From positions 10,197 to 74,196 of the forward strand of contig JBDLIH010000003.1 of the NCBI GenBank assembly GCA_039714975.1: a DNA stretch of 64,000 nucleotides, in the 5' to 3' direction. A model generated the notes under the pieces. That model did not search any database. It was not told the DNA's origin and was given only the letters and a program-made list of their open reading frames with translations. This document shows positions 1,702-26,498 of this stretch, piece after piece. Origin of the DNA: Pseudomonadota bacterium (GTDB lineage: Bacteria > Pseudomonadota > Gammaproteobacteria > UBA9214). The number at the start of each line of letters is the position of its first letter. The first letter of the stretch is position 1. Position numbers and translations under genes: made by a program.

Positions 1702-5260
<3,559 letters not shown>

Positions 5261-10301: not shown

Positions 10302-10868
10302 ATGTCACGGCTAATTCTCGAACCTACCCCGCAGGCCCAGTGGCAGGCACTGGTGCATGAAGCACAAACTGCCTGCGACCGGAATCTGGATGAATCACTG
10401 GAAAGTTACCTGGTGTTTTTGCTGATGCGTTTCGCTGACAGGCCGGAGTGTACGGTGCGCATCATGGCCGAAGACTATCTCAGGTCTCAATCACTTCGTG
10501 GCGAACAGCAGGCCGGGCAACTGCGTGAAGTCGGTGATCATTGCCTGTTGTTCTCCGGGTTATTCCCGCAGCTTGCTGAACGCCGCCTGGTGCATGTCAG
10601 TTATTTTGTCAACATTGGACGGGCCTCCTACCAGCAGTTATCGGCTGTTATGGATCGTGGCTGGGCATCCGTGTATCAGCGTCTGTCAGAGGCCTTCATC
10701 GTGCTGATGGATATCCTGCATGCCATGCGTGGACTGGGGGGTGATACCGTGCTGACACCACTCCAGGCCATGGACCTGTGGCAGGAGACCGGTAGTCGCC
10801 GCTGCTATGAACAGATGTGCGCTGAAGGCCGGCTAAGCCCGGTTCCCGCGGCCACTGAAAAACACTGA
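10302..10868 (+). CDS. Hypothetical protein (188 aa), divergent from glyQS
   Basis: Clean ORF with coding-like composition and no antisense gene. I recognise no family. Confidence 0.5.
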
Positions 10869-10970
10869 ATCACCCGGTATTCTGCCGGGTTTTCTGCCGC
10901 AGCGGTCCTCGCTTGCGGTAGAATCCGTTCGTTCAAATGTTCTCGCGTCAAGCACGCCTGTTGATACACC

Positions 10971-12014
10971 ATGCCCAAACAAGCAAAAGCTGTTGCACTG
11001 ATTTCCGGTGGCCTCGATTCGCTGCTCGCGGCACGTGTGGTGATGGAGCAGGGGGTGCATGTCGAGGGGATCAATTTCTTTACCGGTTTCTGTGTCGAAG
11101 GCCACACCCATGCCATACGTAAAAAAGATCACAAACGGCCGAAACGCAATAATGCCTTGTGGTCAGCAGAACAGCTCGGTATCAAGCTGCATATCGTCGA
11201 TATTATCGAGGAGTACAAGGATGTCGTTATCAACCCTAAACACGGTTACGGCAGCAACCTGAATCCGTGCCTGGACTGCAAGATTTTCATGGTCAACAAG
11301 GCGCGTGAATGGATCGATGCAAACGGCTTTGATTTCATCATCACCGGTGAAGTGATCGGGCAGCGGCCCATGTCGCAGCGCAAGGATACGATGCCGGTCA
11401 TTGCACGTGACTCGGGTGCCGGTGAGCGGCTGGTGCGACCCCTGTGTGCAAGGAACTTGCCGCCAAGCCTGGCGGAGATCGAGGGCTGGCTGGCTCGTGA
11501 CCGCCTGTATGCCTTCAATGGCCGTTCACGCAAGCCGCAAATGGCGCTGGCAAAACAGTTCGGTTTCGAGGATTACGCTCAACCGGCGGGTGGCTGTTGT
11601 TTCCTTACCGATAAACAGTATGCAGTGAAGCTGACAGACTTGTGGAGCACACGCGGCAAGCGTGAATATGACCTCGATGACATCATGCTTTTGAAGGTGG
11701 GCAGGCACCTGCGGCCACGACCGAATTTTAAAATCATCGTCGGTCGTGAAGAAGGCGAGAATCGCTTTCTGGAAGGTTATAGAAAGCGATTTGTGCACAT
11801 GATTCCCACCAGCCATACGGGTCCTTTAGTGCTGCTGGACGGCGATATTTCAGCGGCTGATATCGAGTTGGCGGCACGCCTGACGGCGCGCTTCAGCCAG
11901 GGCCGGGATGCCGAGCGGGTGACCATTGAAGTGAATCCGAAGGGCAGTGCCACACACAGCCTGGTCGTGGTGCCGCTGCCGACAGATGAAATTCCTGCAG
12001 GCTGGTACCTGTGA
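10971..12014 (+). CDS. PP-loop ATP pyrophosphatase of the MnmA/TrmU thiouridylase family (divergent paralog)
   Basis: PP-loop SGGLDS near the N-terminus. NPCLDCKIFMVNKAREWIDANGFDFIITGE aligns with MnmA NPDILCNKEIKF...ADYIATGH. A second Cys region, GGCCF, aligns with MnmA STGICF. Confidence 0.55.
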   Translation: MPKQAKAVALISGGLDSLLAARVVMEQGVHVEGINFFTGFCVEGHTHAIRKKDHKRPKRNNALWSAEQLGIKLHIVDIIEEYKDVVINPKHGYGSNLNPCLDCKIFMVNKAREWIDANGFDFIITGEVIGQRPMSQRKDTMPVIARDSGAGERLVRPLCARNLPPSLAEIEGWLARDRLYAFNGRSRKPQMALAKQFGFEDYAQPAGGCCFLTDKQYAVKLTDLWSTRGKREYDLDDIMLLKVGRHLRPRPNFKIIVGREEGENRFLEGYRKRFVHMIPTSHTGPLVLLDGDISAADIELAARLTARFSQGRDAERVTIEVNPKGSATHSLVVVPLPTDEIPAGWYL

Positions 12015-12244
12015 GCATTACGGTCGTCGATGCACGTAATCTGCTTTGTCCGCTCCCCGTCATCAGGACACAGGACAGCGTCGCAAAACTGCAGCCGGGT
12101 GATGTGGTCCAGGTGCTGTGTACCGACCCGGGTGTTGTCCATGACATCCCGGCCTGGTGCAGGGTGCATGGGCATGAAGTGCGCGCAATAAAGGAACGGG
12201 AATATGAAATTATTATCGATATTCGCGTGGGTAGCGGCGGCTAG
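12011..12244 (+). CDS. TusA-like sulfur carrier protein
   Basis: 77 aa with the LLCPLPV (CPxP) active-site motif of the TusA/SirA family. Its GTG start overlaps the upstream stop in a GTGA junction. Confidence 0.75.
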   Translation: MSITVVDARNLLCPLPVIRTQDSVAKLQPGDVVQVLCTDPGVVHDIPAWCRVHGHEVRAIKEREYEIIIDIRVGSGG

Positions 12245-12251
12245 CTGAATC

Positions 12252-13424
12252 ATGGGACATTCACATTTACCGGATTCGCTTGACGCGCGTTACCTGCACG
12301 TCCGCAAGGTGACGCTGATTGGTGCGGTTGTCGACCTGCTACTGGGCGTGGCGAAGATTGTTGTCGGTGTCACGGCGGGTTCACAGGCACTGGTTGCCGA
12401 TGGCATACACTCATTCTCCGATCTGGCGACTGACTTCCTGGTGCTGTTCGCTGCCAAGCACGCGCATCGCGAGGCCGATACCGAGCACCCCTACGGCCAT
12501 GGTCGTATTGAGACGGTTGCCACGGTGGTGCTGGGCGTGGCGCTGGTGCTGGTTGCCATTGGCATAGCCTGGGATGCGGCACGGCGCTTGCTGGATCAGG
12601 ATTTGCTGCTGCATCCGGGCTGGCTGGCGCTGGTCGTGGCCGTGATCTCGGTGTTGTCTAAAGAGGTGATTTACCACTACACGGCACGGGCAGCGCGCCG
12701 GCTGCGTTCAAAGATGTTGCTCGCCAATGCCTGGCACAGTCGCAGTGATGCCATTTCATCCATCATTGTGGTTATCGGTGTATTGGGTACGATGGCGGGT
12801 TATCCCTACCTGGATGCGGTTGCGGCTATTGCGGTTGGCCTGATGATTGCGAAGATCGGTTGGGAGCTGTTGTGGAAGAGTCTGCAGGAGTTGATCGATA
12901 GCGCGCTGGATCCGGAACAGGTCGAGGCGATACGCAGGACCATCATGGCGGTTGACGGTGTGCGTGCCTGTCATATGCTACGTACACGCCATAGTGGCAG
13001 CGACGCACTGGTGGATGTACATATCCTGGTTGATCCGGTATTGAGTGTCTCGGAGGGGCATCAGATTGGTGAAGCCGTTCGCGGGCACCTGATAGAGACC
13101 ATGGAAAATATCTCGGACGTCACGGTGCATATTGATCCCGAGGATGATGAGCGTGCCTCGCCCTGTCACGATTTGCCGTTACGGGATGAAATTCTGCGGC
13201 GACTCGAACAGCAGTGGCAGCCCCTGGGTATCGGGGAGCGACTCGACAAGGTCGTGCTGCATTACCTGGACGGCAAGGTCCATATCGATGTGTTCCTGAA
13301 GGACGGCGGCCAGGAGCTACAACAGCTGGTTAAACTGACCAGGCTGATACGTGAAGCGGCACATAAGGCGCAGGATATCGGTGATGTCAATGTCTATATC
13401 CAGCACCAGCGCGCACAATTATAG
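12252..13424 (+). CDS. Cation diffusion facilitator family transporter (FieF/YiiP-like) with a C-terminal extension
   Basis: 390 aa. Six TM helices with CDF signature HSFSDLATD and H/D-rich motifs, a cytoplasmic C-terminal domain and an extra roughly 80-aa tail. Confidence 0.85.
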   Translation: MGHSHLPDSLDARYLHVRKVTLIGAVVDLLLGVAKIVVGVTAGSQALVADGIHSFSDLATDFLVLFAAKHAHREADTEHPYGHGRIETVATVVLGVALVLVAIGIAWDAARRLLDQDLLLHPGWLALVVAVISVLSKEVIYHYTARAARRLRSKMLLANAWHSRSDAISSIIVVIGVLGTMAGYPYLDAVAAIAVGLMIAKIGWELLWKSLQELIDSALDPEQVEAIRRTIMAVDGVRACHMLRTRHSGSDALVDVHILVDPVLSVSEGHQIGEAVRGHLIETMENISDVTVHIDPEDDERASPCHDLPLRDEILRRLEQQWQPLGIGERLDKVVLHYLDGKVHIDVFLKDGGQELQQLVKLTRLIREAAHKAQDIGDVNVYIQHQRAQL

Positions 13425-13538: not shown

Positions 13539-13626
13539 TCGTCAAGAACAGAGATTTTAGTGTGCGCCGTTGTCGCCTGATAACGGCGTCTTATTTTTTT
13601 GCGCAAGTTGATTTGGAGGAGTTGTA

Positions 13627-25690: not shown

Positions 25691-26122
25691 TTAACCGGCT
25701 TTGGTCAATGGCAGTTCCGCTTTTTGCCAGGCCAGTACACCGCCTTGCAGATTATAGACCGACTCAAACCCCTGCTTGCTGAGGTTGTTGCAGACTGCCG
25801 TTGATTGCTGCCCCCGCTGGCAGTAAACAATCACCGGGCGTTCACGGTATTTGTTCAGGGTGGCCGGTATTTTGCCCTTGCTTTCCGGCATATTCACTGC
25901 ATTGACAATATGACCTTCACGATAGTCCTTGTCACTGCGCATATCAATCATGATGGCATTATCATGGTTGAGCAGGCGGGTTGCTTCACCGGGACTGACT
26001 GCTTTGACGTGACTGAGGCGCTGTTGCAGCTCTGTTACGATCAGCATCCCGAGAATCGCAAACAGTGCCAGCACCAGCAGGGTATGGTTACCGGCAAATT
26101 CGATCAGCTGCTGTGTATTCAT
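25691..26122 (-). CDS. Membrane-anchored rhodanese-domain sulfurtransferase (YibN-like)
   Basis: N-terminal TM helix followed by a rhodanese domain with the catalytic loop VYCQRGQQS. The start is taken at MNTQQLIEF. Confidence 0.8.
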   Translation of the reverse strand: MNTQQLIEFAGNHTLLVLALFAILGMLIVTELQQRLSHVKAVSPGEATRLLNHDNAIMIDMRSDKDYREGHIVNAVNMPESKGKIPATLNKYRERPVIVYCQRGQQSTAVCNNLSKQGFESVYNLQGGVLAWQKAELPLTKAG

Positions 26123-26183
26123 TGGTGGTGAATGATTTGTCGTGAAGAAAAATAAAACAGGATGCTGAACAATGAAGGGTAGC

Positions 26184-26498
26184 TCAGATACTGTGGCAAA
26201 ATACTTCACGCATCATGCCGATCAATTGCAGTGTGCGTGAGTCGCCGACGCGGTAGTAAACACGGTTGGCGTCCTTGCGTGATGCGAGAATACCCTTGTC
26301 TCGCAGAATAGCCAGGTGCTGGGAAATATTGCTTTGCGAAGTGCCGACACGCTCGACAATATCCTGTACGCTCAATTCCTGATCACCAAGGGTGCAGAGA
26401 ATTTTCAGCCGAAGCGGGTGTGACATTGCCTTGAGGGAGCGTGAGGCGCGGTCGATGTCTTCATCACGTGTGATGAGTGTTTCAGTGCTAACAACCAT
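26184..26498 (-). CDS. ArsR/SmtB family transcriptional regulator
   Basis: 104 aa. HPLRLKILCTL...SQSNISQHLAILRDKGIL is a winged HTH of the ArsR family. Confidence 0.85.
   Translation of the reverse strand: MVVSTETLITRDEDIDRASRSLKAMSHPLRLKILCTLGDQELSVQDIVERVGTSQSNISQHLAILRDKGILASRKDANRVYYRVGDSRTLQLIGMMREVFCHSI

Follow-up and report, generated by a model that had tools for sequence, protein, structure and literature searches.

Within the 64-kb window analyzed here (64,000 nucleotides (nt) of contig JBDLIH010000003.1 from a gammaproteobacterium of the UBA9214 lineage), two overlapping genes encode a PP-loop enzyme of 347 amino acids (aa) and a TusA-like protein of 77 aa, and the best interpretation of the pair is a module of the "ThiI-like PP-loop + NFACT-R" family in which a sulfur relay is joined to a thiolase. 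We assign a probability of about 0.6 to this explanation as a whole, and its parts are not equally secure: the membership of the enzyme in that family can be accepted with little doubt, thiolation of an RNA uridine with the help of TusA is highly likely, the use of a [4Fe-4S] cluster is, by analogy, probable, and 4-thiouridine at position 8 of tRNA (s4U8) is somewhat favored as the product. An earlier reading of the stretch from its sequence alone (the sequence-only reading) had proposed a separate thiolation route with a TusA of its own, and this is still the best account of the locus.

In the mechanism that we propose, a cysteine desulfurase encoded elsewhere would place a persulfide on Cys13 of the TusA-like carrier, and the NFACT-R_2 domain of the enzyme would bind the RNA substrate, most likely a tRNA, taking over the role that THUMP has in canonical ThiI. 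By extension from the superfamily, the target uridine would be adenylated on its exocyclic oxygen by the PP-loop (Ser12 to Ser17) with ATP, and the adenylate would then be displaced by the sulfur delivered by TusA. The parts of this account that are observed directly are the domain arrangement of the enzyme, the motifs, the recurrent and mostly overlapping pair of genes, and the retained cysteine of the carrier. Identity of motif suggests that a [4Fe-4S] cluster is most likely held by Cys100, Cys103, and Cys210, and that its free iron would carry the sulfur from TusA; archaeal TtuI/ThiI, C-type MnmA, and TtuA have been proposed to work through sulfur on a free cluster iron (PMC9825150, PMC7025502), the chemistry proposed for archaeal TtuI being adenylation followed by sulfur transfer from that iron (PMC9825150).

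Both open reading frames (ORFs), the SGGLDS motif, the two cysteine-containing regions of the enzyme, and the GTG start codon of the smaller ORF within a GTGA overlap lie where the sequence-only reading had placed them (Table 1). The pair is a real two-gene module and not a chance arrangement, as can be seen from the Pfam scores, from homologues of the enzyme with identities of up to 96%, and from conservation of the pair in other genomes, and the overlap suggests translational coupling. Two sets of loci were compared, a gammaproteobacterial set of 80 genome loci (64-75% identity; Thiohalobacter, Cycloclasticus, Methylococcales, Sedimenticolaceae, Methylophaga, OM182, and others) and a distant set of 80 loci from a metagenome scan with an alignment headed by a protein of candidate division TA06; a representative library of 50% identity clusters contains 2410 clusters of the family at E ≤ 1e-3 and 866 at E ≤ 1e-30. 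In 72 of the 80 gammaproteobacterial loci the gene that directly follows the enzyme on the same strand is tusA; of the eight loci that depart from this, two are truncated contigs. Start and stop codons overlap in 53 of these 72 pairs, the overlap being 4 nt long in 36. Of the 56 distant loci whose downstream sequence extends for 600 nt or more, 41 have a TusA ORF within 3 kb; the 80 distant loci together have 51 TusA copies within this distance, of which 9 are upstream and the other 42 follow the enzyme on the same strand, and the cysteine codon of TusA is typically about 33 nt past the stop codon of the enzyme. The pair is, as previously published, an operon conserved across phyla. The wider gene order is plsC, gmhB, glyS, and glyQ (minus strand), then the thiolase gene, tusA, a gene for a CDF-family transporter, glnA, ntrB, and ntrC; that of Cycloclasticus pugetii is the same as in the window, and the gene pair of the window is an ordinary, syntenic, and typical member of the family. 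No second PP-loop thiolase or TusA is present inside the window.

The 77-aa carrier matches PF01206 (TusA) with a score of 75.1 bits (cut-off 28.6, E = 4e-21), and residues 6-59 align with residues 12-65 of Escherichia coli TusA (1dcj, 3lvj; E = 4e-9), placing Cys13 at the position of the catalytic Cys19. Its scores are below the cut-offs of the NCBIfam equivalogs for TusA (42.2 versus 78 bits), YedF (34.7 versus 79), and TsuB/YeeD (25.4 versus 147.5), and it represents a distinct TusA-like group with motifs of its own, LLCPxPVI(R/K)xQ and DPGxxxDIPAWxRxxGH. The cysteine is retained in 72 of 73 gammaproteobacterial sequences, the window copy included, and 48 of the 51 distant copies have a CPxP-type motif, so that the dedicated TusA-like carrier of the sequence-only reading, for which such conservation was the check, is upheld. 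In two of the distant loci, L086 (5552-5800) and L083 (5165-5413), the called TusA (61 aa) starts at the Met inside CPMP and the catalytic Cys is clipped; the open frame runs further upstream through ...GLLCPMP..., and the clipped calls are probably a gene-calling artefact or reflect a non-canonical start. The same two loci have an ORF between the thiolase and TusA genes, for a DsrE_2-family protein in L086 (5052-5546) and for an unannotated product of 59 aa in L083 (5004-5183), which is from TA06; these intervening ORFs hint at an extra sulfur-relay component in some lineages.

Three Pfam families match the enzyme. PF02568 (ThiI) scores 42.6 bits (cut-off 20.5, E = 6.8e-11) over residues 4-158, PF03054 (tRNA_Me_trans, the N-terminal part of MnmA) scores 40.8 bits (E = 2.6e-10) over residues 7-127, and PF18297 (NFACT-R_2) scores 118.5 bits (cut-off 26.9, E = 1.8e-34) over residues 244-346, a match that covers the complete model (1-104 of 104). 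The first two matches and the invariant SGGLDS bear out the identification of a PP-loop thiolase that had been made from the sequence; the NFACT-R_2 domain had been missed. Neither a THUMP nor a rhodanese domain, and neither the central nor the C-terminal domain of MnmA, was detected by Pfam in the 347 residues. The PP-loop begins at residue 12, leaving no N-terminal ferredoxin-like and THUMP portion such as is present in canonical ThiI/TtuI, and NFACT-R_2 stands where the central and C-terminal domains of MnmA and the THUMP domain of ThiI would be. Among 50 diverse members of the family the ThiI model matches 49 and the MnmA N-terminal model 48, with similar best E-values, and NFACT-R_2 is found in all 50.

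The description of the enzyme as a divergent member of the MnmA family holds at the level of the superfamily only; as a specific label it does not, the ThiI and MnmA models scoring about equally, and the enzyme appears to belong to a clade of its own that is defined by the NFACT-R fusion. The distance from orthodox MnmA that had been noted earlier is apparent from the NCBIfam equivalogs for MnmA, all well under their cut-offs (NF001138, 42.5 versus 284 bits; TIGR00420, 38.7 versus 236.95; NF011258, 27.1 versus 680); TIGR00342 (ThiI) scores 43.1 bits against a cut-off of 264.5 and aligns over model positions 172-313 only. In a phmmer comparison with E. coli MnmA, NPCLDCKI is aligned with NPDILCNK and DFIITGE with DYIATGH. 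These parts of the motif alignment with MnmA given in the sequence-only reading stand, but the correspondence of GGCCF with STGICF is recovered only as a second, non-significant stretch of 1.7 bits against a MnmA chain. The Cys100/Cys103 motif is also aligned, in a separate search, with NPCVMC of the MnmA chain 9hln. The alignment with ThiI reaches residue 158 through the TGE-x-GQ-x-SQ and RPL motifs, whereas the alignments with MnmA span residues ∼4-130 and end near residue 130. Taken together, the sequence and fold data leave the affinity of the PP-loop half to ThiI and to MnmA about equal.

One reading of these similarities is that the enzyme is a divergent MnmA paralogue making 2-thiouridine at tRNA position 34 (s2U34) with sulfur taken directly from TusA, TusBCD and TusE being bypassed, which is the short-circuited route of the sequence-only reading. 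MnmA is the best match in both sequence and fold among solved structures, the s2U34 relay of E. coli starts with TusA as its carrier (PMC4075521), and the database names of homologues (MnmA/TrmU) agree with such a role. However, these names derive from the PF03054 N-terminal match alone, the MnmA alignments are confined to the N-terminal portion, and the missing central and C-terminal domains, in place of which NFACT-R_2 is found, together with the sub-threshold scores, rule out an orthodox MnmA identity; the paralogue is improbable. The names given to homologues include "tRNA U34 2-thiouridine synthase MnmA/TrmU," [quoted passage not shown] and "thiamine biosynthesis protein"; this mis-annotation of the family is systematic, the names tracking the PF03054 match and ignoring the NFACT-R domain.

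The fusion of a ThiI-like PP-loop domain with DUF814 (now NFACT-R) was described by Burroughs and Aravind (2014, RNA Biol 11:360; PMC4075521), and the association of these genes is not a new idea: the fusion, the TusA neighborhood, and the predicted s4U8 function are all in that study. The family was reported to retain the ATP-binding residues, a CxxC motif, and an internal cysteine, to have specific GRxRxxQ and TxxE motifs and two arginines in NFACT-R, and to have a TusA gene as its sole conserved neighbor, fused to the enzyme in Francisella philomiragia, with IscS and IscU at times adjoining (PMC4075521). Its phyletic pattern and that of THUMP-ThiI are almost mutually exclusive, and a variant tRNA 4-thiouridylation (s4U8) was predicted in which TusA takes the place of rhodanese and NFACT-R that of THUMP (PMC4075521). 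In a preprint of 2021, "K04487 and PF02568-PF18297" serves as the genomic marker of 4-thiouridylation in Thaumarchaeota. The window enzyme has every sequence-level feature of the published family (PP-loop, NFACT-R with two arginines, cysteines, GRxRxxQ, no THUMP or rhodanese, adjoining TusA); all defining features are common to both and nothing essential differs. The window copy, which is gammaproteobacterial, has its TusA as a separate overlapping gene, unlike the fused form of F. philomiragia, has no IscS or IscU nearby, unlike those of Aquificae, and is followed after TusA by a CDF transporter gene. The present analysis adds to the published description the counts of TusA pairing, the finding of exactly three invariant cysteines forming a CxxC+C signature, and the Fe-S operons of distant lineages.

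Comparison with characterized systems places the enzyme between several of them. Archaeal TtuI/ThiI of Methanococcus maripaludis and of Pyrococcus furiosus shares with it a PP-loop, a CXXC+C triad, and the lack of rhodanese (PMC9825150), but has N-terminal ferredoxin-like and THUMP domains where the window enzyme has a C-terminal NFACT-R domain and a dedicated TusA partner. E. coli ThiI (THUMP, PP-loop, and rhodanese) is similar in its PP-loop domain and, as predicted, in its product, s4U8, and the GE-x-GQ-x-SQ and RPL segments of the enzyme align with Bacillus anthracis ThiI; the window enzyme has neither THUMP nor rhodanese, a separate TusA-fold carrier being predicted to act in place of the fused rhodanese, and has three cysteines where the PP-loop domain of ThiI has a single one. 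The N-terminal PP-loop domain of MnmA (C-type in Thermus thermophilus, D-type in E. coli) is the best match among solved structures, the triad matches that of C-type MnmA, and TusA is a sulfur carrier in both systems, although only by prediction for the window enzyme, which has no central or C-terminal tRNA-binding domains and no linked genes for TusBCD or TusE. Its C-terminal domain is homologous with the NFACT-R of RqcH/NEMF/FbpA, proteins of ribosome-associated quality control, from which it differs in that NFACT-N, HhH, and coiled-coil parts are missing, as is any link with ribosome rescue; NFACT-R domains fused to a PP-loop lack the DxxxH of NFACT proteins and have two arginines instead (PMC4075521), here Arg245 and Arg259.

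Residue conservation was assessed in an alignment of 50 representatives that are 35-61% identical to the window protein. The invariant positions are residues 12-17, Cys100, Asp102, Cys103, Gly184, Arg185, Arg187, Gln190, Cys210, Arg245, and Arg259; the TxxE motif of the family corresponds to Ser166-x-x-Glu169, Glu169 being near-invariant and Thr the family consensus at 166. Cys100, Cys103, and Cys210 are the sole invariant cysteines in both family alignments, and Cys209 varies across the family. Relative to E. coli MnmA, Cys100 corresponds to Asp99 and Cys103 to Cys102 (phmmer), and Cys210 corresponds, by a weak alignment, to Cys199. An AlphaFold model of the enzyme from a 38-sequence alignment has a mean predicted local distance difference test score (pLDDT) of 90.1 and a predicted template modeling score (pTM) of 0.85, compared with a pLDDT of 36.9 from a single-sequence run. 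Foldseek searches with the model find MnmA (1.8e-7), [4Fe-4S]-LarE (8cp4 and 8cnz; E = 6e-7, TM score 0.48 on the target), ThiI (2e-6), TtuA, and QueC, whose E-values span no more than about two orders of magnitude, and the C-terminal domain picks up RqcH (7aqc).

A cluster-dependent mechanism is favored because the CxxC+C triad is as found in the [4Fe-4S] thiolases (TtuA, NcsA, C-type MnmA, and archaeal TtuI) and because some distant lineages have the gene in iron-sulfur (Fe-S) operons. In TtuI of M. maripaludis and P. furiosus (PMC9825150), and likewise in C-type Thermus MnmA and in TtuA (PMC7025502), such a triad is the binding site of a [4Fe-4S] cluster that is essential. Some distant loci have the gene order NifU_N, thioredoxin, FeS_assembly_P, Rrf2, (IscS), thiolase, (DsrE_2), TusA, and another has Mrp, FeS_assembly_P, thiolase. 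The same RNA target could also be thiolated by a cluster-free persulfide route, in which the sulfur of the TusA persulfide would pass to Cys210 and, with Cys103 or Cys100 as the resolving residue, sulfide would reach the adenylated uridine. Such a route has been proposed for E. coli MnmA (Cys199/Cys102) and E. coli ThiI (Cys344/Cys456), and Cys103 and Cys210 of the enzyme align with the catalytic pair Cys102 and Cys199 of the former; moreover, a TusA-type persulfide carrier would be the natural donor for this chemistry, none of the 80 gammaproteobacterial loci has adjoining Fe-S assembly genes, and many of the organisms that carry the module are aerobic, e.g. Cycloclasticus and Methylobacter. 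However, the invariant Cys100 is located where cluster-free D-type MnmA has Asp, the full triad binds [4Fe-4S] in every characterized case (PMC9825150, PMC7025502), and Fe-S assembly neighborhoods do occur in distant lineages, so that the cluster-free route is a possibility to be held only tentatively.

The NFACT-R_2 domain points to an RNA substrate, and a thio-cofactor product, one of the options of the sequence-only reading, is therefore unlikely. The NFACT-R of RqcH contacts helix 38 of 23S rRNA, so that the domain does bind RNA, and the family profile matches the NFACT-R of RqcH (residues 457-534, 4e-6) and of FbpA (5h3w, 1e-4). A role in the insertion of sulfur into a small molecule or cofactor, either like that of LarE or in connection with the thiamine or molybdopterin pathways, would be compatible with the appearance of [4Fe-4S]-LarE among the best fold matches and with the cofactor-related roles that both ThiI and TusA have in E. 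coli (PMC4075521; PMC9825150). It is nevertheless very improbable: a full-length NFACT-R RNA-binding domain is fused to the enzyme throughout the 50 members, no lar, thi, or moa genes are conserved neighbors in the gammaproteobacterial or distant loci, and the enzyme lacks rhodanese, the part of ThiI that serves thiamine synthesis (PMC9825150). A LarE or cofactor role was rejected on the basis of the fused domain and the absence of cofactor-pathway neighbors.

It should be recognized that several points weigh against the interpretation of the pair as a cluster-dependent, ThiI-like s4U8 module. The assignment of s4U8 depends on the published phyletic complementarity with THUMP-ThiI (PMC4075521), and the literature searches found no experiment on any member of the family, only the 2014 prediction and the preprint that uses the domain pair as a marker; a search for a link between s4U8 in Aquifex and the family gave nothing usable. 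According to He et al. (2022), ferredoxin-like and THUMP domains are part of every TtuI enzyme, and the fusion class is unmentioned (PMC9825150). The PP-loop half is not separated as ThiI-like or MnmA-like when the family profile is compared with the PDB, a CxxC-type MnmA chain scoring 48.6 bits and B. anthracis ThiI 42.3 bits. Fe-S assembly neighbors are present in only ∼8 of 66 distant loci and in no gammaproteobacterial locus, and the cysteine-bearing loops are the least confident parts of the model, with Cys210 in residues 201-210, although the cluster-ligand regions of archaeal TtuI are likewise of low confidence (PMC9825150). Finally, the sole structurally documented contact of NFACT-R is with rRNA, not tRNA.

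Because that contact, with 23S rRNA helix 38 in RqcH, is the only one documented, a target that is not tRNA or not U8 has to be considered, but it is doubtful or rather less than that. In its general form, a doubtful one, the enzyme would thiolate an RNA position other than tRNA U8, such as s2U34, s2C32, s2U54, or a position in rRNA, NFACT-R conferring the new specificity; in a narrower and unlikely form, a [4Fe-4S] thiolase would be aimed by NFACT-R at an rRNA helix or at a tRNA position for which no thiolation is known in bacteria. The catalytic domain resembles the C2 thiolase MnmA as closely as the C4 thiolase ThiI, RqcH NFACT-R binds rRNA rather than tRNA, and s4U8 is a prediction for which no test was found in the literature. 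Against this, bacterial rRNA nucleotides are not known to be thiolated. The alignment of the enzyme with ThiI takes in the GE-x-GQ-x-SQ and RPL motifs that lie beyond the end of the MnmA alignments, and the near-exclusion of THUMP-ThiI in phyletic distribution (PMC4075521) also argues for U8.

Table 1. Positions of the thiolase-tusA module, its motifs, and the flanking features within the window
Feature	Position	Strand	Basis
PP-loop/NFACT-R_2 enzyme gene (347 aa; ThiI-like PP-loop ATP-pyrophosphatase, predicted RNA/tRNA uridine sulfurtransferase)	10971..12014	+	ATG start; ORF and Pfam
PP-loop Ser12-Gly-Gly-Leu-Asp-Ser17, ATP binding and adenylation	11004..11021	+	Sequence read; invariant in 50 diverse members
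NPCLDC, Asn98 to Cys103 of the enzyme	11262-11279	+	
Cys100-x-x-Cys103, invariant cysteines 1 and 2 (putative [4Fe-4S] ligands)	11268..11279	+	Both family alignments
DFIITGE of the enzyme	residues 120-127		Sequence read
Gly184-Arg-x-Arg-x-x-Gln190 loop motif, specific to the ThiI + NFACT-R family	11520..11540	+	Alignment, n = 50; PMC4075521
GGCCF, Gly207 to Phe211 of the enzyme, containing Cys210			Sequence read
Cys210, third invariant cysteine (putative catalytic residue or cluster ligand)	11598..11600	+	Both family alignments
NFACT-R_2 domain, residues 244-346, predicted RNA-binding module with invariant Arg245 and Arg259	11700..12008	+	Pfam PF18297
GTGA start/stop overlap of enzyme and tusA genes	12011..12014	+	GTG, tusA start; TGA, enzyme stop
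TusA-fold sulfur carrier gene (77 aa)	12011..12244	+	GTG start; Pfam TusA
TusA-like active-site Cys13 in Leu-Leu-Cys-Pro-Leu-Pro-Val	12047-12049	+	Pfam; E. coli TusA alignment
Hairpin and U-run just past the stop codon of the upstream 188-aa ORF	10867..10899	+	RNA fold, -13.6 kcal/mol, z -3.2
CDF-family metal-efflux transporter gene (390 aa), 7 nt after tusA	12252..13424	+	Pfam Cation_efflux and ZT_dimer

The hairpin upstream of the module is probably a terminator and would mark the 5' boundary of the operon. Because this terminator-like hairpin comes directly after the upstream 188-aa ORF, a promoter of the thiolase gene's own in 10895-10970 is suggested. On the other side, no terminator-like site is present between the end of tusA (12244) and the start of the CDF gene (12252), a hairpin of terminator type lies past the CDF gene at 13564-13589, and this gene is probably co-transcribed with thiolase and tusA. 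The nearest NCBIfam models for its product are MamB, MamM, and FieF, all below their cut-offs, and about 90 residues past ZT_dimer have no domain match. The gene is likewise placed in Cycloclasticus and in 37 of the 80 gammaproteobacterial loci, and in none of the 4 distant loci with gene calls; it is treated here as lineage-specific synteny and not as a component of the system.

Other features of the window are as follows. No Pfam or NCBIfam model matches the 188-aa ORF (10302-10868, plus strand), which lies between the divergent glyQ and the gene for the thiolase; relatives with 40-63% identity are present in 12 of the 80 gammaproteobacterial loci, often, although not always, in the same position. 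At 25691-26498 on the minus strand, genes for a 172-aa protein with a rhodanese domain and for an ArsR-family regulator adjoin secB and gpsA. The rhodanese gene is the second sulfur-carrier-type gene of the window. It lies some 13 kb from the TusA module, and its arrangement recurs in Cycloclasticus; no evidence tying it to the thiolase was seen. The whole window has no tRNA genes and no Rfam matches at gathering level. The ORFs at 412-1512 and 2696-5260, from the appearance of their N termini by eye, look like dnaN and gyrB; if so, the window adjoins the chromosomal replication origin region.

The locus itself is of moderate-to-low interest, but the family as a whole is a good target for experiment. 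The labels MnmA/TrmU and "methyltransferase" are wrong for this architecture and can mask the absence of ThiI and inflate counts of MnmA in surveys. Were the enzyme to act at another RNA site, some genomes at the least would have it side by side with canonical ThiI and MnmA, and thousands of "MnmA" annotations would conceal either an RNA thio-modification that is new or a new writer. If the s4U8 reading is correct, sulfur would be handed over directly from TusA to the thiolase with no TusBCD or TusE between them, and the enzymes would constitute a further class of U8 sulfurase, unlisted in PMC9825150, with NFACT-R and not THUMP, TusA and not rhodanese, and probably a [4Fe-4S] cluster. The module would then be the means by which many bacteria and some archaea without ThiI make s4U8, the near-ultraviolet sensor and structural stabilizer of tRNA.

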